From UHGV virus genome UHGV-0016039: a stretch of DNA of 44,102 nucleotides. One strand, written 5' to 3'. Shown in pieces: positions 1,248 through 44,102 of the stretch. The notes under the pieces are model-generated. The model saw only the letters and a list, made by a program, of their open reading frames with translations, was not told the origin of the DNA and did not search any database. Position 1 is the first letter of the stretch; each line of letters begins with the position of its first letter. This DNA is from a virus. Both the position numbers and the translations under genes were made by a program.

Positions 1248-2677
1248 TGGCTATTAAACCAAAGCGCAAAACACAATCAGGAAGCAATACAGAACACTCA
1301 TTACTCGGGCCATCGGGATCTAAAAAATGGATGGGGTGTCCCGCCGCCCTGGTGGTCGAAAAAGATATCCCGAACGAATCCGGGCAAGCTGCGATTAACG
1401 GTACGTGTATGCACACTGTATCGGAGGTCGTGCTAAACCGTATTATTGCCGGTGAGAAGCTGATAACCGCGAAGACGTACAAAGGGTGCTACGTCGAGAA
1501 CGAGGGTAAGGGACCAGTAAAGGCCCACCCGAAAGCACCAAAAGGCGGCGTACTGGTCAACGACGATATGGTGAAACAGTGCGATGCGTACATCGACCAC
1601 TGGCGACCACTCCTCGAGGTGGCGGAGTTTGTTCAGCTTGAGATGCGCGCCGATCTGACCCGCGTCCTTCACTCAGGCTACGAGATCGACGGCAACAGGA
1701 TTAAAACGTTCGGTACTGCCGATATGGTCATGGTCATGAAAAAGACCGATGGGACGTACATGCTGATTGTTGGCGACCTGAAGACCGGGCGGCATAAGGT
1801 CGAGGCGAAAGAGAACAAACAGCTTATGTTGTACGCGATCGGACTGCTGCGCAAGCTGCAAACTATGTACGACATTACGACCGTTCGCCTGGTTATCTTC
1901 CAGCCGTATTGCGGCGGGGCGTCGGAGTGGGATATTTCGGTAGAAGCGCTGGAGATATTCGCGAAGTTTGCATCCAAGCGCGCTATTGCCGCACTGGAGG
2001 CGTATTCCCGAGGCAAGAAGGGACTTACCCGTGCCGACTTCCGTCCCAGCGTTGATGCGTGCCAGTGGTGCCGATTTGCGGATCAGTGTAGTGCCCGCGC
2101 TAAGGCCGCAATCGACACGATGACACCTCCAACGGCAACCGACGAAGACCTGGGCGACGACGTGAGCGTGGCGACCGAGGAAGAATGCGCCAATCACGAC
2201 CGCAATATGGTCCGCGAAGCCCGAAAGGCGGCCCGACGTGCGAAGCGTGGCAAGAAAGAAGCTGCCCCCGGCGCTATGAGCGCTGCGGAACTGCGCAAGG
2301 CTTATGAAGGCCTGGACGCAATGCGCCAGCACATCAAAGCTATCGAGTCCGCGGTATTCAAAGCGGTAATGGCGGGCGATGGCGAATCGCTGGGCCTTAA
2401 GATGGTTGCCGGTAAGGAAGGGATCCGTAAGTGGGCGGACGAGAGCGAAGTTATTGAAATCTTCACGAAGGCCCGGATCAAGCGCGATGTGATGTACAAA
2501 GAAACATTGCTCAGCCCTACGGATGCCGAGAAGGTATTGAAGGACGAGAAGCCGAAAGTGTGGGCGAAGCTGTGTGATAAAATCACGCGCGCACCGGCTA
2601 AACCTGTATTAGCACCCATTGACGACCCGCGTCCTGCGTGGTCCGAAGCTACCGACGAGGACTTAAGTAATGAATAA
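1247..2677 (+). CDS. PD-(D/E)XK nuclease, DUF2800/Cas4-like, with C-terminal Cys cluster
   Basis: N-terminal LLGPSGSKKWMGCPAAL, D..K core (IVGDLKTG), CQWCRF..C cluster; position upstream of SSB-like and PolA genes. Confidence 0.75.
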   Translation: MAIKPKRKTQSGSNTEHSLLGPSGSKKWMGCPAALVVEKDIPNESGQAAINGTCMHTVSEVVLNRIIAGEKLITAKTYKGCYVENEGKGPVKAHPKAPKGGVLVNDDMVKQCDAYIDHWRPLLEVAEFVQLEMRADLTRVLHSGYEIDGNRIKTFGTADMVMVMKKTDGTYMLIVGDLKTGRHKVEAKENKQLMLYAIGLLRKLQTMYDITTVRLVIFQPYCGGASEWDISVEALEIFAKFASKRAIAALEAYSRGKKGLTRADFRPSVDACQWCRFADQCSARAKAAIDTMTPPTATDEDLGDDVSVATEEECANHDRNMVREARKAARRAKRGKKEAAPGAMSAAELRKAYEGLDAMRQHIKAIESAVFKAVMAGDGESLGLKMVAGKEGIRKWADESEVIEIFTKARIKRDVMYKETLLSPTDAEKVLKDEKPKVWAKLCDKITRAPAKPVLAPIDDPRPAWSEATDEDLSNE

Positions 2678-2912
2678 AGTATTCGCAATCTTATTGATGT
2701 TTTTGCTCGGCGCGCTGGGCTTTATCCTGCAGTGCGTGCAAGGCGTGTTAATGGTGGCATGGATGATTCGTCATCCAACCAAATGGCTGGATGACGGTTA
2801 TAGCGAAGTTGCCGTCGATTGGGTGGGGAAGAACATCAACCGCCCGCCGTTAAGCTGGATCGAGAACGCTACCAACTACGTGACCAGAAATCTTTTTAAT
2901 GAAAATGCTTGA
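2670..2912 (+). CDS. small membrane protein (80 aa)
   Basis: ORF track; hydrophobic N-terminus AILLMFLLGALGFIL; overlaps stop of upstream gene. Confidence 0.45.
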   Translation: MNKVFAILLMFLLGALGFILQCVQGVLMVAWMIRHPTKWLDDGYSEVAVDWVGKNINRPPLSWIENATNYVTRNLFNENA

Positions 2913-3002
2913 CCGCTTAGGCGCAACCAAGTAGATTAGCAACCAAGCCGAACGGGGTGGCTTCCAATAACCCCGATACATGTGAAAATGAGGAATTGGA
3001 AA

Positions 3003-3791
3003 ATGGCTAAAGTCAACCTGAAAAATGTGCGCGTATGTTTCCTGAAAATTTGGGAACGTGATACCCCTAAACAGGATGGACAAAAACCGGCATACCGCGC
3101 CGTGATTCTTCTTGATAAAGAAGACCCGCAGGTGGACAAAGTGGAGGCGGCAGCGCGCGCAGTGCTCACCGACAAGCTGAAATCCGAGAAGAATGCCGAT
3201 AAGTGGATGGACCGCCACTACGCCCAGGATTCTAAGGAATGTGCAGTTCGCGACGGCGACGAGCGCGATGAAGTAACCGAAGAGTTCGAAGGCATGTTGT
3301 ACATCAACGCCAAATCGTTCAAACAGCCTAACATCCAAACGTCACTGGGCGAGAAGCAGACCGAGCAAGGTCTGACCGTAGACGGCGACGAGATCGAAGG
3401 CCAGGAGATCTACTCCGGTTGTTATTGCAATGTGTCCCTGGATATTTGGGCGTGGAACAATACCAACGGCAAGGGGCTCGGGGCCGGCTTGCTGGGTCTG
3501 CGATTCCGTGAAGACGGCGAAGCCTTCGGGGGTGGCGGGTCTTCATGTTCTGACGAAGACCTGGACAACGATGACGAAGACGAAAGCCCGCGTAAGTCCA
3601 AAAAGTCAAAACGTCGTGATGACGATGACGAAGACGACAAGCCGCGTAAGTCCAAAAAATCCAAGCGCAGCGATGACGATGACGACGACGACGAAGACGA
3701 AAAGCCTCGCAAACGTCGTAAACCACGCGATGACGAAGATGAGGACGACGAAGACGAAGACGAAGCACCACGCAAACGTCGCCGCCGTTAA
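3003..3791 (+). CDS. DUF2815-type phage ssDNA-binding-like protein with C-terminal D/E-rich and PRKSKK repeat tail
   Basis: ATG 3003 preceded by GAGGAA; N-terminal MAKVNLKNVRV..F motif; gene order DUF2800-DUF2815-PolA. Confidence 0.7.
   Translation: MAKVNLKNVRVCFLKIWERDTPKQDGQKPAYRAVILLDKEDPQVDKVEAAARAVLTDKLKSEKNADKWMDRHYAQDSKECAVRDGDERDEVTEEFEGMLYINAKSFKQPNIQTSLGEKQTEQGLTVDGDEIEGQEIYSGCYCNVSLDIWAWNNTNGKGLGAGLLGLRFREDGEAFGGGGSSCSDEDLDNDDEDESPRKSKKSKRRDDDDEDDKPRKSKKSKRSDDDDDDDEDEKPRKRRKPRDDEDEDDEDEDEAPRKRRRR
3556..3788 (+). repeat. in-frame charged tandem repeats (DDDDEDD-KPRKSKKSKR units) at C-terminus of SSB-like protein
   Basis: repeated gacga(t/c)ga.. and ccgcgtaagtccaaaaa units visible in DNA. 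Confidence 0.65.
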
Positions 3792-3809
3792 GGGCAAAGC
3801 CCACTATTC

Positions 3810-3834
3810 AAGCCCGCTTAATGCGGGCTTTTTA
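3810..3834 (+). terminator. rho-independent terminator
   Basis: stem aagcccgc/gcgggctt followed by ttt. Confidence 0.65.
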
Positions 3835-3849
3835 ATAGGACAATGAAAA

Positions 3850-4020
3850 ATGCGTATTAAAGCCAGCGAAGTAAAAGTCGGAATGCAAGTATGGTCCAAA
3901 TTGCTGGGCGAGTATTTCACCGTTGCCGAGATTCGCAACAACGGCGAGGAGATCACCCTTTCCGACGGTATCTCCTCCATGATCGGCAGCGCTGACGCCG
4001 TAGTGAGGATAAAGCAATGA
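3850..4020 (+). CDS. small hypothetical protein (56 aa), stop overlaps PolA start (ATGA)
   Basis: ATG 3850 to TGA 4018-4020 read by hand; below the ORF-track length cutoff. Confidence 0.35.
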   Translation: MRIKASEVKVGMQVWSKLLGEYFTVAEIRNNGEEITLSDGISSMIGSADAVVRIKQ

Positions 4021-25623: not shown

Positions 25624-25647
25624 ATAAAAAGGGGCCGTGCTGGCCCC
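25624..25647 (-). terminator. rho-independent terminator downstream of major tail protein gene
   Basis: ggggcc-gtgct-ggcccc followed by ttttt on - strand. Confidence 0.5.
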
Positions 25648-25677
25648 ATATTATCACTCGCTATTTAAGCCACCAAA

Positions 25678-26403
25678 TCAAGACAATGCCTCGACCAGAT
25701 CCTTACGGTAGATAACCATATCTGACTGCATGGTCAGAGTAGATTGTACCGTTTCCACGTTGTTTACCTCAGCGGACGGAATCTTCTGGAAGGATACCTT
25801 CGCCGGGTAAATACGAATTTCACCTTTGCCACTTGCTGCCGCTGGGTTAGTGAACTTAATCACAGTGGTTTTCTGTGTATCGTCCAGGTCTTCCAGGATT
25901 GGGCGGATCGGGTCTTCTTCGTCGTGGGTGAAGGTGTAAGTCTGGACCAGCGGGTTTTTCGTGGTGTTCAGACTGATCGCGGTGTTCACCTGCAACGGCT
26001 GGAAGGTAGTCGTCTGCTGGTCGCCACCCGACACGGCAACGTTAGTGATAAACGGAAAGTCGATAAAGTTAGACACCTTCACCACTTCGCCCGGAGTGCC
26101 TACGCCGAAAGCACCGGTCGGGTATTTGGTGGCGTCTTGAGTATCGAAGCGCGCCAGCGTCACGTCGTTCCCAGATACTTTACCAACGATGAACGCGCGG
26201 TTCAGCGCACGGACCCACGGGGTTTTAGTGAACATAACAACGTCGCCAACAACCAGACCGTGAGACTCCGCGCAGGTAATTACGCAACCTTGCGTAAGGT
26301 CAGAGATCGACGCAGCGGCGTTGGTGGCTGCCGTAACCGCGATACCATTACCCAGTACGGACCCAATCTGGACGCTGGACCCGTTAGGAAGTTGATAACC
26401 CAT
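25678..26403 (-). CDS. major tail protein (lambda V-like position)
   Basis: 241 aa; synteny immediately upstream of G/G-T; flanking terminator. Confidence 0.75.
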   Translation of the reverse strand: MGYQLPNGSSVQIGSVLGNGIAVTAATNAAASISDLTQGCVITCAESHGLVVGDVVMFTKTPWVRALNRAFIVGKVSGNDVTLARFDTQDATKYPTGAFGVGTPGEVVKVSNFIDFPFITNVAVSGGDQQTTTFQPLQVNTAISLNTTKNPLVQTYTFTHDEEDPIRPILEDLDDTQKTTVIKFTNPAAASGKGEIRIYPAKVSFQKIPSAEVNNVETVQSTLTMQSDMVIYRKDLVEALS

Positions 26404-36311: not shown

Positions 36312-36428
36312 GATATAAGCCCTTTTATGCATATGCGCCGACCATCGGCAACATAGGAGACGGCCCAGCCATCTAAGGGGGATTATAACAGGCACAAAAA
36401 AGCCCACCAAATCGGCGGGCTGGGTGGG

Positions 36429-36641: not shown

Positions 36642-37780
36642 TTCAACATTTCCGGGCTAATGGTTAAGCGCGCTACTTCGCCGTAGTTGGCGCTATAGGT
36701 GATGACGTTTGCACTGCGACCGGACATCCAACCGCCACGGCTTGCATATGCATCTTTCGCGGCAAGCGTCCGGTGCTGTTCAACAATCATGTTGCGGGAT
36801 TCAACAATCTTCTGGTGGTGCAAGTGGCCTACGTGCGCGTAGCTGTACTCACTTGACCCGAAAGCCTGTCTGAATTTAGAAATCATGACAGGCTCGATGG
36901 CGTCAAATCGTGCTTTATGTCCGTGGTGGAAGAACAGCGTTGTTTTACCGTGCTGCACCATTTTGTAGACGTCCGGGGATGTGTCCACATCAACGCGCGG
37001 CTCGTTCTCGTACAGGGTATTGAACATCTCAGCCAGCCAAATCATACCGGACTCGTCATGATTACCCTGGACGATTAGTAGTTTGACCTTATGGTGTTTT
37101 TGCAGCGCCAGTTCAACCACGTTTCGCACCATGCGAATCATGTAGCGGACCAACTTCTGGTAGCGGGTATCGGCATCCAGTACGTGACCGCTGGCAGGGG
37201 TAACGGCATCGAGGCTGTCAAAGTGGGCCATATCACCGAGGATATTGATTACGGCAGTGCCCGCGTCCGGCGCGCGTGCGAAGGCTTCGACAAACCAGCG
37301 GTAGAACAGGTCTTCGGCGATTGCCATATCCCAGTCCTCGCCAGTCTCCTCGCCCCATGCCAACATGCCCAGGTGGAAGTCTGACACGGTGTACAGGTTG
37401 AGCAAATCAAGCGCCTGGATCGGTACTGGCGAGGCTTTTACTGGCGCTGCCGGTGTGATTTCGCTGTTCATACCCTCGACAACAGCGCGCATAGCTTCAA
37501 GCTGGCGCTCCTTGTCCTGCTCAGTGATGACCCAGGACATGACCTCTTCGCCATTGCCGCGCACCAGGGCCGATACGCGCTTAACCCCAAAGCCATCGGC
37601 AACTCGCTTGCGGATTACGGCATCGTTGCCGTGTCCAATGCCTTTTTTCGCCAGGCGGGCTTTCCGCATATAGACATTGCGTAGGGCAATCCCGTATTTC
37701 TTCGCAATATCTTTCGAGGTAGTGCCGGATTGTAATTCAGCAATCAATTGCTCGTCTGTGATTTTAGTTTGCGGGTGCAT
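36638..37780 (-). CDS. calcineurin-like metallophosphoesterase (SbcD/Mre11-like motifs) with N-terminal HTH
   Basis: VSDFHLG, GDMAHFD, GNHDE, HHGH motifs; N-terminal TTSKDIAKKYGIALRNVYMRKARL; ATG 37780 with AGGAAG. Confidence 0.7.
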   Translation of the reverse strand: MHPQTKITDEQLIAELQSGTTSKDIAKKYGIALRNVYMRKARLAKKGIGHGNDAVIRKRVADGFGVKRVSALVRGNGEEVMSWVITEQDKERQLEAMRAVVEGMNSEITPAAPVKASPVPIQALDLLNLYTVSDFHLGMLAWGEETGEDWDMAIAEDLFYRWFVEAFARAPDAGTAVINILGDMAHFDSLDAVTPASGHVLDADTRYQKLVRYMIRMVRNVVELALQKHHKVKLLIVQGNHDESGMIWLAEMFNTLYENEPRVDVDTSPDVYKMVQHGKTTLFFHHGHKARFDAIEPVMISKFRQAFGSSEYSYAHVGHLHHQKIVESRNMIVEQHRTLAAKDAYASRGGWMSGRSANVITYSANYGEVARLTISPEMLK

Positions 37781-37813
37781 ATTAATTAACTTCCTGGTTA
37801 TTGGTCCGAGGAC

Positions 37814-37837
37814 AATATACCACGGTCCCAAGTCAAG
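37814..37837 (-). promoter_or_regulatory. possible extended -10 promoter (TGgTATATT) for phosphoesterase gene
   Basis: rc of 37814-37822 is TGGTATATT; TTGACT-like -35 only 11 bp upstream. Confidence 0.3.
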
Positions 37838-37839
37838 AA

Positions 37840-37867
37840 ATAAAAAAGCCCGGAATTAACCGGGCTT
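37840..37867 (-). terminator. rho-independent terminator ending lysis-region transcript
   Basis: agcccgg-aattaa-ccgggct followed by tttttt on - strand. Confidence 0.55.
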
Positions 37868-37873
37868 GTTAGT

Positions 37874-38035
37874 TTACTCTTCTGGCTCTGCAGGCGGTGG
37901 CGGACTCGGCAGCTTCGCGTCAAAGACGCCTGCATGGCTGATAGTGTCCGCGATGATAGCGCGTGCGCCAGGGTCTTCGGTTTTAGCCAGCGCGGCGAGC
38001 GCGTCAGCGTTATGATCAAGAATGCTTTTTAACAT
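37874..38035 (-). CDS. small hypothetical protein (53 aa, Pro-rich C-terminus)
   Basis: ATG 38035 preceded by GAGGT; read by hand, below ORF-track cutoff. Confidence 0.35.
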   Translation of the reverse strand: MLKSILDHNADALAALAKTEDPGARAIIADTISHAGVFDAKLPSPPPPAEPEE

Positions 38036-38051
38036 ACTGTGTTACCTCGTA

Positions 38052-38543
38052 TTATGCTGCGTTACGCCCGATTCGCTCGGCAACGTCCCACTGCTTACCA
38101 TCAAACAACGCCTGTCTGCCGATTGCACGGCGTACAAGACCCTTCAGCACTTCCCCGCCTTGCTTGCGGAACTGCGGCAGAGTAGTACGGACCTTCGCCC
38201 AGTCTCCCAGTCGCACCGCGTCATCGAAATCATTCGCGACGTCATCCGGTACGATCGGGCCAGGACCGGCATTGATTACCAGGTCCACCAGCGCATCGAA
38301 TTGCGCCTGATTGATACTAGGGTGTGCGTACTTGTTCACCCAGTTCTCGGCATATGCCACATCTCGCTTGAGCAGTTCCAGCGCTTCCGCGCGGGTAATG
38401 CTCCGCGGCGGGTTCGTGCCTGTATGCCCATAGCCCCAGGTGTACAGGCCGCGGGCCTGCTCTTTCTTAGTCGCGAAATACGGCACTGGGCTGAATTGCT
38501 CCCATGCTGCCGTAAATCTTAGACCGTTGTCACTGAATCGCAT
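38052..38543 (-). CDS. endolysin, GH24 lysozyme-like
   Basis: N-terminal SDNGL..E.F...PY....GLYTWGYGHTG pattern typical of P22/T4-type lysozymes. Confidence 0.78.
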   Translation of the reverse strand: MRFSDNGLRFTAAWEQFSPVPYFATKKEQARGLYTWGYGHTGTNPPRSITRAEALELLKRDVAYAENWVNKYAHPSINQAQFDALVDLVINAGPGPIVPDDVANDFDDAVRLGDWAKVRTTLPQFRKQGGEVLKGLVRRAIGRQALFDGKQWDVAERIGRNAA

Positions 38544-38775
38544 GTTTTACCCCATTCAAAACAGCATTACGCAGCGTGCGCAATGCAAACAGCCAGATTA
38601 ACGCGGTCCAGGTGGCGTCAGATACGTCTCCCGTTTGCAACAGACCGACAATACAGGTCATTGCCGTTAGCAGATATAACACCCGACCGAAGAAGCCATC
38701 CTGGACGGACGGCGCATACACGTTAAACAGGGACGACGCCCCGATAATCACAAACAACAGGACGGTGATAATCAT
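38530..38775 (-). CDS. small membrane protein (holin/antiholin-like, ~3 TM)
   Basis: hydrophobic segments; ATGA overlap with upstream holin. Confidence 0.5.
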   Translation of the reverse strand: MIITVLLFVIIGASSLFNVYAPSVQDGFFGRVLYLLTAMTCIVGLLQTGDVSDATWTALIWLFALRTLRNAVLNGVKHAIQ

Positions 38776-39062
38776 TTTGCGCCCCCCGGAAGGTGTAGCG
38801 TCGCAATTGTCTCCCGGATCCGGTCAGCGATTGGCATCCAGAAGATGGCAGTTACGAAGCCCAAACCGGCAACAGTGCGCTCACCAGACAAACCAGACCA
38901 CTCGGCAATAGCTGGTGCCCCAAATATGGCACACAGGAAGCCAACAACGACATATAAAACGAAGTTCAACGGCCCTTTCGTTGCCTCGCCATGAATGCGT
39001 GCGCCTACGAATCCACCAGCAAGACACGCAAGGGCGAATAACCACTCGTTAAGCTTATCCAT
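38772..39062 (-). CDS. putative holin (3 TM segments)
   Basis: 96 aa with three hydrophobic helices; immediately upstream of endolysin cassette. Confidence 0.6.
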   Translation of the reverse strand: MDKLNEWLFALACLAGGFVGARIHGEATKGPLNFVLYVVVGFLCAIFGAPAIAEWSGLSGERTVAGLGFVTAIFWMPIADRIRETIATLHLPGGAK

Positions 39063-39096
39063 AAAAAAGTCCCAGTAAGTTTTATCTCACTGGGAC
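39063..39096 (-). terminator. hairpin plus T6 directly 5' of holin start codon
   Basis: perfect 9-bp stem agtcccagt/actgggact; T-run on - strand abuts ATG 39062. Confidence 0.5.
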
Positions 39097-39114
39097 TATA
39101 TCACGCTTGCATAA

Positions 39115-39402
39115 TTAATCGAAAATGGACCACTTGCCGACGCCTTTCCACTCCCACCCGGATGATCGGACGGCTTCGAATGTTCGCCCGCCTATCATAT
39201 CCCGATACCACAGCCACCACATGCGCAACCTGGTCGGGTGCTCCGCGATTCCACGGCGCTTGTATATCTCGAACGTCATGCGGGTAATGCTGGCGGCTTC
39301 CACCGCGGGCCAAATCAGGAAGACCCACACCAACAGCGCCAGCACCGCAACAAAGAGTGACGCGCACCCCAATCCAAACCAATAAATCACATCGTGTAAC
39401 AT
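39115..39402 (-). CDS. membrane protein (95 aa)
   Basis: ATG 39402 preceded by AGAGGGGG; hydrophobic N-terminus. Confidence 0.5.
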   Translation of the reverse strand: MLHDVIYWFGLGCASLFVAVLALLVWVFLIWPAVEAASITRMTFEIYKRRGIAEHPTRLRMWWLWYRDMIGGRTFEAVRSSGWEWKGVGKWSIFD

Positions 39403-39527
39403 CGAATTGCCCCCTCTGGTTTGCCGATATGGCGCGCCCATGCACGCGCCACGAAGTAATTGCGGAACACTCGCCCGCCTATCTCAAAGCGGTTATGCAC
39501 CAACAAATCACGGATAGTTGCGCTCAT
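39387..39527 (-). CDS. small hypothetical protein (46 aa)
   Basis: ATGA overlap with upstream gene stop; read by hand. Confidence 0.3.
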   Translation of the reverse strand: MSATIRDLLVHNRFEIGGRVFRNYFVARAWARHIGKPEGAIRCYTM

Positions 39528-40141
39528 TTCAGTATTACCGATTGCGGGTCGATGGCTGTCATGCTGCCGTCACGTTCGACACGGATGAATCCAACGCCAT
39601 ATTCCTGCGCGTGGCGCTGTGCATTCGTCACGGCATCAAAGCGATTGACTATCTCTCGCGTGGCCTGGCGGATCGGCTCCATCACTTTGCTCGCGTCGTA
39701 GGAGGCATACGCGGGCTGCGACTTGCGGAACTCGACGCGCGTCTTCTGTGCAACCTCACGCGTTACGCGGTTAACGGCGTCCACTATGGCGTTCGCTTGC
39801 TCATGCGGCCGGCGATCACGGAGGCTGTATTTGCGCCCCACGCGCTCGTAGTGGATTAGCCCGAAGTACGACATACCCGCTACGCCATCCTTGCGGTTCT
39901 GCATACGCAGGCCATGAAGCCCGACATACTCGACGACCCACATACTACCGTCGCGAATATCACGCAGCACATCGCCGCGCTCAATATCGTGTGTGAGAAT
40001 ATCGCAGTCTTCATGCAGCTTGTCTTTCTTCGCCCACCACACCCGATTTCCTGCCGCGTTTTGCAAGCGTACGTGTGAATCCAGGGTCTGTATCGGCTTC
40101 AGGATGCGCCCGTCCGATTTGCGGCGGAATAGTAATTTCAT
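39524..40141 (-). CDS. hypothetical protein (205 aa)
   Basis: ATG 40141 preceded by GAGGAG. Confidence 0.6.
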   Translation of the reverse strand: MKLLFRRKSDGRILKPIQTLDSHVRLQNAAGNRVWWAKKDKLHEDCDILTHDIERGDVLRDIRDGSMWVVEYVGLHGLRMQNRKDGVAGMSYFGLIHYERVGRKYSLRDRRPHEQANAIVDAVNRVTREVAQKTRVEFRKSQPAYASYDASKVMEPIRQATREIVNRFDAVTNAQRHAQEYGVGFIRVERDGSMTAIDPQSVILK

Positions 40142-43616: not shown

Positions 43617-43946
43617 TTACTTAAAAGTTTTATTATTGCGTACCCAGGAGCGCACTGTGCTCTGATTAATTCCGGTCAACTCGGCAATCATCGCCCACGA
43701 TTTTCCCTCGTCGCGCAAACGTATAACCTGCTTTTTGTATTCTTCCATTTCTTCATTGTGCTTTTGCAGCTTGCTCGCGGCCGTGCCGTTGAGCAATTCC
43801 AGCCTGGCGCGTAATTCTTTCTCGACACTGCGCAGTCGTTCGATTTCAAATAACACCGCCCCCACGGCATCTGTATAAGCCCATGACCGGCTTGTCTCAC
43901 TGCAAACAGTCTTCGTTAACATTTCGATTGCGCCGTTTACATTCAT
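43617..43946 (-). CDS. HTH DNA-binding protein (109 aa)
   Basis: C-terminal HTH-like WAMIAELTGINQSTVRSWVRNN; ATG 43946 with GAGGG. Confidence 0.55.
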   Translation of the reverse strand: MNVNGAIEMLTKTVCSETSRSWAYTDAVGAVLFEIERLRSVEKELRARLELLNGTAASKLQKHNEEMEEYKKQVIRLRDEGKSWAMIAELTGINQSTVRSWVRNNKTFK

Positions 43947-44102
43947 TGCTCTGCCCTCAGTTGGTTAATGACCAACGAAACTACACCCAAAACCGCACGG
44001 TGTCAAATCCTTTGGATATTGAAACGGGCGCGCACGCGTGTAATAATAATTCCCGTCTCATTGTCTCTTATTGGTTAGCGCCGTCGCATTTTGCCTCGGC
44101 GC

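Follow-up and report, generated by a model that had tools for sequence, protein, structure and literature searches.

A hairpin at the holin start codon of a Dhillonvirus phage as a candidate terminator, ribosome-site lock and nested promoter

The window analysed here comprises the 44,102 nucleotides (nt) of virus genome UHGV-0016039, a Dhillonvirus (HK578-like siphophage of E. coli), and the element in question is a hairpin that directly precedes a holin-like gene on its - strand. When a 1.8 kb segment around this hairpin was compared with phage genomes, 153 records matched at 80-95% identity, nearly all of them from Escherichia phages of the genus Dhillonvirus. Starting from an early promoter region (~43.98 kb), the - strand carries a helix-turn-helix (HTH) gene, a primase-helicase gene, small genes, the gene of a 108-amino-acid (aa) membrane protein and then the hairpin; it continues with two holin-like genes (96 and 81 aa), the endolysin gene, a 53-aa open reading frame and a canonical terminator. 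Beyond this terminator (37867-37846) come an exonuclease-like gene, another terminator and then the terminase and structural genes. The lysis cassette is located directly 3' of the early genes and on the same strand. The window is apparently a whole genome, cut within a divergent early promoter region (43950-44102 and 1-67) whose strongest TTGACA-type sites (- 43983, + 44042 and + 45) face outward on both strands.

The hairpin and the buried ribosome site

Reading along the - strand, the end of the upstream gene leads into the holin gene as ...gat TAA ttatgcaagcg TGaTATAGT... AGTCCCAGTGAG-ataaaa-CTTACTGGGACT-ttttt-ATG. An earlier note on this DNA had described a perfect 9-bp stem (agtcccagt/actgggact) at this place, which is indeed present and grows by three additional pairs (G·U, A-U and G-C) to 12 bp. 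The resulting hairpin (39097-39068) contains six G-C pairs, one G·U pair and a 6-nt loop, and has a predicted stability of -19.3 kcal/mol when folded alone. No other of the eight terminator-like hairpins on the coding strand is as stable, and it is also the top terminator-like match in our scan; its 86-nt context folds with a z-score of -4.8, none of 200 shuffled sequences being as stable. The start codon (39062-39060) abuts the T-run with zero bases between them, just as the note had it, while the run of six T reported there contains only five unpaired bases, the sixth being the last base of the stem.

The note had named a different holin start as an observation that would speak against its proposal. 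When checked, ATG 39062 turned out to be the only usable start: it is the first and sole in-frame ATG, GTG or TTG before residue 76, and its Met-Asp-Lys/Asn position is also where homologues from other genera start. A lambda-style dual start was likewise rejected, given that the N-terminus reads MDKLNEW and contains this single start codon. The view that the gene has no Shine-Dalgarno sequence requires correction, as there is no canonical one, but a weak GGGA is buried in the 3' arm of the stem. Its positional counterparts in related phages are strong GGAGG or GGGGA sequences, and also GGAGGA, GGAGA and GAGG.

To put a number on this occlusion, the annotated genome of phage EK99P-1 is informative, in which the element differs by a single base in the loop. 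Opening the holin start region of EK99P-1 costs 21.3 kcal/mol (positions -18 to +10) or 18.4 kcal/mol (-18 to -4), which ranks first among the 62 annotated genes, and the Shine-Dalgarno duplex (-3.9 kcal/mol) is among the weakest. By comparison, two other terminators in the window are followed, past the U-run, by a normal GGAG or AGGAG and then ATG. We consider it very probable that the ribosome site is occluded in RNA reading through from upstream, and the structure-controlled initiation that the earlier note had offered as one of two options is well supported computationally, both by this rank and by the recurrence of a hairpin in ~13 of 16 same-strand lineages (see below). Coupling to translation of the upstream gene was rejected: its stop codon is located 17 nt before the stem, and a ribosome that terminates there would probably be too distant to open the main helix.

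The hairpin also matches the sequence criteria of an intrinsic terminator, namely a stable, G-C-containing stem-loop, a U-run immediately 3' of the stem and a co-directional unit upstream, and it is the first convincing terminator on the - strand after the TTGACA-type early promoter (~43.98 kb). Some terminator activity is probable in our estimate. The same hairpin is already present in the GenBank record of vB_EcoS_WF5505 (MK373790) as a 'putative transcriptional terminator, -10.40', and the record of the Klebsiella phage KLB22 (PP554336) contains an annotated terminator that overlaps the holin ribosome site. These annotations, which concern the same (WF5505) or a homologous (KLB22) hairpin, were called by terminator-prediction software and, unlike the present analysis, mark neither a promoter nor occlusion nor conservation across genera. 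A bidirectional terminator was rejected, as there is no T-run on the + strand side. An Rfam search of positions 37700-39700 returned no match above threshold; the sub-threshold matches, NsiR1 (28.1 bits vs 39) and His_leader (26.6 bits vs 49), were driven by the terminator hairpin.

Table 1. Coordinates of the holin-start element and of the surrounding lysis genes in the window.
Feature	Position	Strand	Remarks
Upstream co-directional gene, 108 aa, membrane protein of unknown function (phrog_2531)	39115..39441	-	stop TAA 39117-39115, 17 nt before the hairpin
Poor -35-like region, TTTCGA (18-nt spacer) or TCGATT (16-nt spacer)	39117..39124	-	overlaps the end of the upstream gene
Extended -10-like TGaTATAGT	39095..39103	-	TG 39103-39102, hexamer TATAGT 39100-39095
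5' arm AGTCCCAGTGAG	39086..39097	-	CCC pairs with the Shine-Dalgarno-like GGG
Predicted transcription start, G 39088 or A 39087	39087..39088	-	7-8 nt past the -10 hexamer; inferred from promoter geometry
Loop ATAAAA	39080..39085	-	nearly the sole variable part among close relatives (ATAAAA, CTAAAA, CTGAAA)
3' arm CTTACTGGGACT	39068..39079	-	holds GGGA 39073-39070
Weak Shine-Dalgarno-like GGGA	39070..39073	-	7 nt 5' of the ATG, paired inside the 3' arm; ~-3.9 kcal/mol with the 16S 3' end
Unpaired T5 (six with the last stem base)	39063..39067	-	U-tract of the putative terminator and spacer between ribosome site and start codon
Holin-like gene, 96 aa (phrog_2359 'holin')	38772..39062	-	ATG 39062; three transmembrane domains according to the WF5505 annotation
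Second holin-like gene, 81 aa (phrog_2508)	38530..38775	-	ATG overlaps the stop of the first holin-like gene (ATGA, 38775-38772)
Endolysin gene (Pfam Phage_lysozyme)	38052..38543	-	start 14 nt inside the end of the second holin-like gene
Canonical terminator closing the lysis cassette	37846..37867	-	followed by extended -10 TGGTATATT, 37822-37814

With regard to the genes around the hairpin, the ATGA overlap makes translational coupling of the second holin-like gene to the first likely. The EK99P-1 counterpart of the upstream membrane protein gene is annotated as a coding sequence of 95 aa. Spanin genes are absent from the lysis cassette; the annotation of EK99P-1 places Rz-like spanins at a distance from it, within the head module.

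Hairpins and promoter motifs before homologous holins

Among lineages in which the gene upstream of the homologous holin is located on the same strand, about 13 of 16 carry a hairpin of different sequence at the same place. The 3' arm of these hairpins is the G-rich ribosome site, and the arms are otherwise unrelated between genera except for the C-run and G-run. Hairpins whose 3' arm contains the Shine-Dalgarno sequence were found in Dhillonvirus (three sub-lineages), Kagunavirus, Jerseyvirus, KLB22, Tsm2, Scapp, P0023, P0043, P0036 and P0030. They read, for example, ATCCTCCAG/CTGGAGGAT followed by tcatc and TTG in Kagunavirus, AATCTCCGAA/TTCGGAGATT followed by ttttatt and GTG in Jerseyvirus, TCCCCG/CGGGGA followed by T7 and ATG in KLB22, GCCTCGG/CTGAGGC followed by ttcac and ATG in Tsm2, and GGCCCC/GGGGC followed by ttcaa and TTG in Scapp.

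At shorter evolutionary distance, the stretch that links the upstream gene to the ATG is invariant in 17 close Dhillonvirus loci, save for the loop, the length of the T-run and one apical base in the 5' arm of WF5505, which breaks one pair. Changed arms are found in LM40P1 (CCCCAGTGAGGT/ATCTTACTGGGG; 71% holin identity) and P0044 (ATCCCCCAGGTGA/TTATCTGGGGGAT; 54% holin identity), and in LM40P1 the ATG is still flush with the U-run despite a different N-terminus of the protein. Covariation within Dhillonvirus alone is weak, since only these two loci add changes and the double changes at 4 of 17 pairs partly depend on the alignment. Across lineages, G·U pairs and compensatory changes point to an RNA structure rather than a DNA palindrome.

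The U-run is distributed differently from the hairpin. It is present in Dhillonvirus, Jerseyvirus and KLB22, partial in P0044 and P0023, and absent from Kagunavirus, Tsm2, Scapp, P0043 and P0036. Because only some of the hairpin-bearing lineages have a U-run, the conserved feature, judged from these sequences, is occlusion of the ribosome site and not termination. A terminator function, to which the earlier note had pointed, is plausible in the window, although the U-run is missing from the Kagunavirus, Tsm2-like and Scapp-like relatives. Loci with a divergent upstream gene, at which therefore no read-through can reach the holin, provide the counterpart: all three (P0017, P0016 and Erwinia RF1) are without the hairpin, and opening their start regions costs 1.8-4.5 kcal/mol vs 8.5-18.9 kcal/mol in same-strand lineages. 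MED16 and LIET2 combine a separate upstream terminator with a free ribosome site, and Scapp also has a separate canonical terminator upstream of its holin.

A second conserved feature is located at the 5' edge of the hairpin. The sequence TGaTATAGT matches the criteria of a sigma-70 extended -10 element, with TG at -15/-14, A at -11 and T at -7, a pattern that occurs twice in the window vs 0.74 times expected; for the looser TGNTAWADT, there are 10 matches vs 5.2 expected, a mild enrichment. T39100 and A39099 are outside the stem, whose 5' arm opens with the last three bases of the hexamer (AGT). The poor -35-like region is positionally homologous to TTGCAG and TTCAGA of relatives. A transcript begun at the predicted start would have a leader of 25-26 nt that no longer contains the part of the 5' arm pairing with the ribosome site, and the computed opening cost falls from 18.9 to 2.1 kcal/mol when the RNA begins at G 39088. 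TGaTATAGT is invariant in 19 Dhillonvirus loci, LM40P1 included, and the untranslated bin 39120-39092, with 25 of 30 columns invariant among these loci, is the joint top 30-nt bin over 1.2 kb.

Beyond Dhillonvirus, a TAnnnT hexamer is located just 5' of the hairpin, or overlapping it, in every lineage examined. Some of these hexamers are preceded by TGn, as in TGaTATAGT (here), TG[g/c]TATCCT, TG[c/t]TAATCT and TGcTACTAT, and others by a -35-type sequence, as in TTGCAG-N18-TATACT, TTGACC-N17-TACTAT and TTTACC-N18-TAATCT. In an alignment of 15 lineages with a mean identity of 48%, the only invariant columns are the T and the A that open the hexamer; its closing T is present in 15 of 15 lineages by direct reading, two rows being shifted in the alignment. 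In Dhillonvirus this TA is outside the stem, and therefore pairing does not explain its invariance. The n of TGn varies (TGg/TGc and TGc/TGt). A TTG-type -35 at 17-18 nt accompanies one of eight TGn lineages vs six of eight lineages without TGn (one-sided hypergeometric p ~0.02, the lineages being related), and such an alternation between TGn and TTG is the pattern that functional sigma-70 promoters would show. In P0017, where the upstream gene is divergent and the holin must consequently have its own promoter, TTGCAA-N18-TATACT is kept at the homologous spot. When scored with a position weight matrix (PWM), the hexamer is the best site within -75 to -12 in 11 of the 14 same-strand lineages scanned, ranking 1-8 of 2000-4000 positions per locus.

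The spacer of this putative promoter shows a conservation of its own. A block TT(G/T)CAGATTAATCC with a GATTAATC palindrome is located between the -35 and -10 positions (39111-39124 in the window, here TTTTCGATTAATTA) and, in the 15-lineage alignment, is shared from Guernseyvirinae-like phages to Dhillonvirus. This block may be an operator.

A proposed nested promoter and its alternatives

We propose that one 41-nt stretch could serve at once as a sigma-70 extended -10 promoter, a hairpin/U-run terminator and the ribosome-binding site of the holin. Long RNAs initiated at ~43.98 kb on the - strand, which run through the primase and the small early genes, would carry both arms of the hairpin. 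Part of them would end at the U-run, and those reading through would keep the hairpin, with the weak Shine-Dalgarno sequence buried and the stem and U-run abutting the AUG, leaving the holin untranslated. The second holin-like gene and the endolysin gene would probably be silenced as well in these RNAs, because their starts overlap the preceding genes (ATGA and 14 nt, respectively). The nested promoter would start at ~39088, past the 5'-arm bases complementary to the ribosome site; its short RNAs could not form the hairpin, would not be terminated and would present an open start region. Such an element would insulate a lethal gene from early read-through and pass control of lysis to a dedicated promoter. 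The role in lysis timing that the note had suggested is a reasonable possibility. The read-through-dependent expression that the note had considered as the other option is probably not the main route, given that the conserved TGaTATAGT, which the note had not noticed, overlaps the 5' arm and that its transcripts would start inside the hairpin.

In its full form, this model states that read-through RNA is terminated or translationally silent, and that RNA from the nested promoter is shorter and translated. We give it about an even chance of being correct. Computed here were the structure, how it ranks within the genome, how it recurs with other sequences, its absence where read-through is impossible and the conservation of the hexamer. 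That the promoter fires, where it starts, when it is active and that the hairpin terminates transcription is what we infer from them.

Several points weigh against the nested-promoter model. The PWM is a simple one built from consensus frequencies, and by this measure the Dhillonvirus site, which is without a real -35, is moderate (score 9.1, about rank 37 of 88,132 window positions) and comes only 16th among 62 gene upstream regions in EK99P-1. In Jersey and Kagunavirus K1ind3, the top PWM pick is another nearby hexamer. Given these moderate genome-wide ranks, the case for a promoter rests on the comparison between lineages and not on the score; the compared lineages are related, and the counts of lineages are not independent. 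Among the close Dhillonviruses, the invariance of the region makes the hexamer and the stem inseparable. In P0013 the promoter motif is accompanied by no more than a weak hairpin, and P0038 and P0040 are ambiguous. A constitutive promoter of the host type in front of a holin would also have to be weak or regulated for the timing to be explained. We found no maps of transcript 5' or 3' ends for Dhillonvirus, Kagunavirus or Jerseyvirus in the literature; an RNA-seq paper on the Kagunavirus K1B4 gives gene-level classes only, and KBNP1315 was set aside as an unrelated, SP6-like phage.

A rival arrangement, in essence that of the earlier note and possible though in our opinion doubtful, has no internal promoter at all and combines a leaky terminator with a translational brake, such that the lysis genes are expressed solely from read-through transcripts and the slow build-up of holin sets the lysis time. 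The fit of the hairpin and U-run to the criteria of intrinsic terminators, the annotation of the hairpin as such in WF5505 and over the ribosome site in KLB22, the first rank of the holin start for occlusion in EK99P-1, and the only moderate PWM score of the promoter-like site all speak in its favour. It offers, however, no explanation for the invariant T and A of the hexamer outside the stem in 15 lineages, the swap between TGn and a TTG -35 or the loss of the hairpin exactly at divergent loci where the hexamer stays. An opening cost of 18-21 kcal/mol together with a Shine-Dalgarno duplex of -3.9 kcal/mol would moreover predict almost no translation of read-through RNA, and several lineages that keep the hairpin do so without a U-run.

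It is unlikely that the hairpin is an ordinary terminator at the end of an operon, which touches the start codon through compactness of the genome while the holin is translated normally via a U-rich leader. Module borders in this genome often carry terminators, the hairpin-T5-ATG layout occurs a second time (21899-21867), and in MED16, LIET2 and Scapp a separate canonical terminator precedes the homologous holin. Yet the two other terminators mentioned above leave room for a canonical GGAG or AGGAG past the U-run, Kagunavirus, Tsm2 and Scapp keep the hairpin over the ribosome site without any U-run, and the LM40P1 start codon has stayed flush with the U-run although the protein begins differently. 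The hexamer, the TGn/-35 swap and the divergent loci are also left unexplained.

The inverted repeat might finally be a DNA operator bound by a dimeric phage regulator, or else be recognised as RNA by a processing enzyme or another protein, which we regard as very improbable: although it overlaps the putative promoter from -10 to ~+20, the usual zone of operators, an early HTH protein is encoded at 43946-43617 and the spacer contains the conserved GATTAATC-like palindrome, its G·U (G·T in DNA) pairs and covariation through wobble steps keep RNA pairing and not a DNA palindrome, and arms that are unrelated between genera save for a C-run and G-run matching the ribosome site fit occlusion rather than a protein site in common. 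As 12 bp is a short stem for RNase III, a site for this enzyme was rejected as well.

Other pairs of terminators and candidate promoters, and known systems

The hairpin-T5-ATG layout at the holin is not unique. A second junction at 21908-21867 (-) consists of TGATAAAAT followed by GGCCCTCAC/GTGGGGGCT, TTTTT and the ATG of a gpM-like minor tail gene. One pair of its stem covaries (T·G here, T-A in LM40P1 and C-G in EK99P-1), and the EK99P-1 counterpart keeps the hairpin with the U-run absent. The tape-measure gene stops 4-7 nt before this stem, so melting by the terminating ribosome, i.e. translational coupling, may be an alternative for this element. At 25631-25680 (-), TTGGTG-N17-TGaTAATAT adjoins the terminator GGGGCC/GGCCCC (25647) that follows the major tail gene; EK99P-1 and LM40P1 share its -35, TGn and hexamer but have a different hairpin sequence. 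The start predicted for this site falls in the loop of the hairpin, which would make it another promoter nested in a terminator. Both terminators flanking the exonuclease-like gene have an extended -10 motif 10-25 nt downstream (37814-37867 and 36382-36421, -); the one at 36421 is followed by TGTTATAAT, and LM40P1 carries TGaTATAAT there. Pairs of a terminator and a promoter motif are present at every module border on the - strand.

These sites invite a broader view in which the holin element is one case of a genome-wide design, with TTGACA-type promoters used early and -35-poor extended -10 promoters, fused to terminators, used late. The host polymerase could then be redirected from early to late units by a phage factor that disables -35 recognition, the hairpins stopping or silencing early read-through. 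The early candidates are located at ~43.98 kb, 44.04 kb and position 45, all candidate promoters of the late strand (holin, 25656, 21908, 37822 and 36390) are of the TGnTAnnnT type fused to a terminator, and three of the latter predict starts inside the terminator hairpin. In phage T4, AsiA disables -35 recognition. The first early gene on the - strand (43617-43946) encodes a 109-aa protein whose HTH scores 26.6 bits against Pfam Sigma70_r4_2 (cutoff 25.7) and also matches HTH_23; the protein is a candidate for regulating the phage promoters and, through this HTH resembling sigma-70 region 4, a possible candidate for the factor behind the switch. We rate the design as a whole as distinctly improbable; if true, it would amount to a temporal programme not described before, used by virulent siphophages without a polymerase or sigma factor of their own. 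Promoters and terminators of adjacent bacterial units are often physically coupled, according to a bioRxiv report (10.64898/2026.08.19.745784), and coupling of this kind is seen here at four or five sites.

Holins kill once enough protein has accumulated, and a phage must therefore silence them until its progeny are ready. We found no explanation in the literature of how Dhillonvirus and Guernseyvirinae, which carry the lysis cassette behind the early genes, avoid premature lysis. One would be provided, if the model is true, by an element that silences or terminates RNA arriving from upstream and leaves control to a nested promoter. Its functions should be separable by precise bases: T39100 and A39099 belong to the promoter without being part of the stem, and CCC 39094-39092 with GGG 39073-39071 belong to the stem. 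Given that these genera are common in phage-therapy collections against E. coli and Salmonella, the element might also offer a handle for engineering lysis time. For genome annotation, it is a caution that a 'terminator' hairpin can contain both a ribosome site and a promoter.

The lysis cassette of lambda is controlled by pR'-tR' with antitermination by Q, and by the sdi stem-loop with the dual starts of S. Both systems place a terminator (a putative one in the window) between upstream transcription and the holin, and an RNA stem-loop at the holin start that affects (in the window, would affect) initiation. In lambda, however, hundreds of bases separate the terminator from the holin gene downstream, and Q overcomes it; no Q-like factor turned up in the window, where no search aimed at one was made. 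The sdi structure chooses between two Met codons (holin vs antiholin), whereas the holin here has a single start.

Closer in principle is the fold-back inhibition of IS10, in which transcripts from outside reportedly fold over the ribosome site and those from the element's own promoter start inside the structure. Alike is the insulation of a harmful gene from read-in transcription at two levels; unlike our case, the IS10 gene encodes the transposase of an insertion sequence, and IS10 is not known to have a U-run terminator fused to the start codon. The protection of IS10/Tn10 from external promoters is attributed, in PMC13181058, to Davis, Simons & Kleckner (1985).

The nearest precedent comes from T4, in which the genes e (lysozyme), soc, 49 and I-TevI carry an inhibitory helix over the ribosome site in early read-through RNA, and in which the late promoters are located in the DNA encoding the 5' strand of this helix (Uzan & Miller, 2010; PMC3014915). 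As in gene e, a lysis gene is positioned downstream of earlier transcription, and the Shine-Dalgarno sequence and/or AUG would be sequestered in long transcripts. There are also differences: the gene here encodes a holin and not an endolysin, the phage is a siphophage without a late sigma factor of the T4 type, and the promoter motif resembles the host sigma-70 extended -10 rather than TATAAATA. In addition, the hairpins of Dhillonvirus, Jerseyvirus and KLB22 bear a U-run, which we read as that of an intrinsic terminator. Taken together, the holin element would be a new example of control of the T4 gene e/IS10 type, conserved across Dhillonvirus and Guernseyvirinae-like phages.

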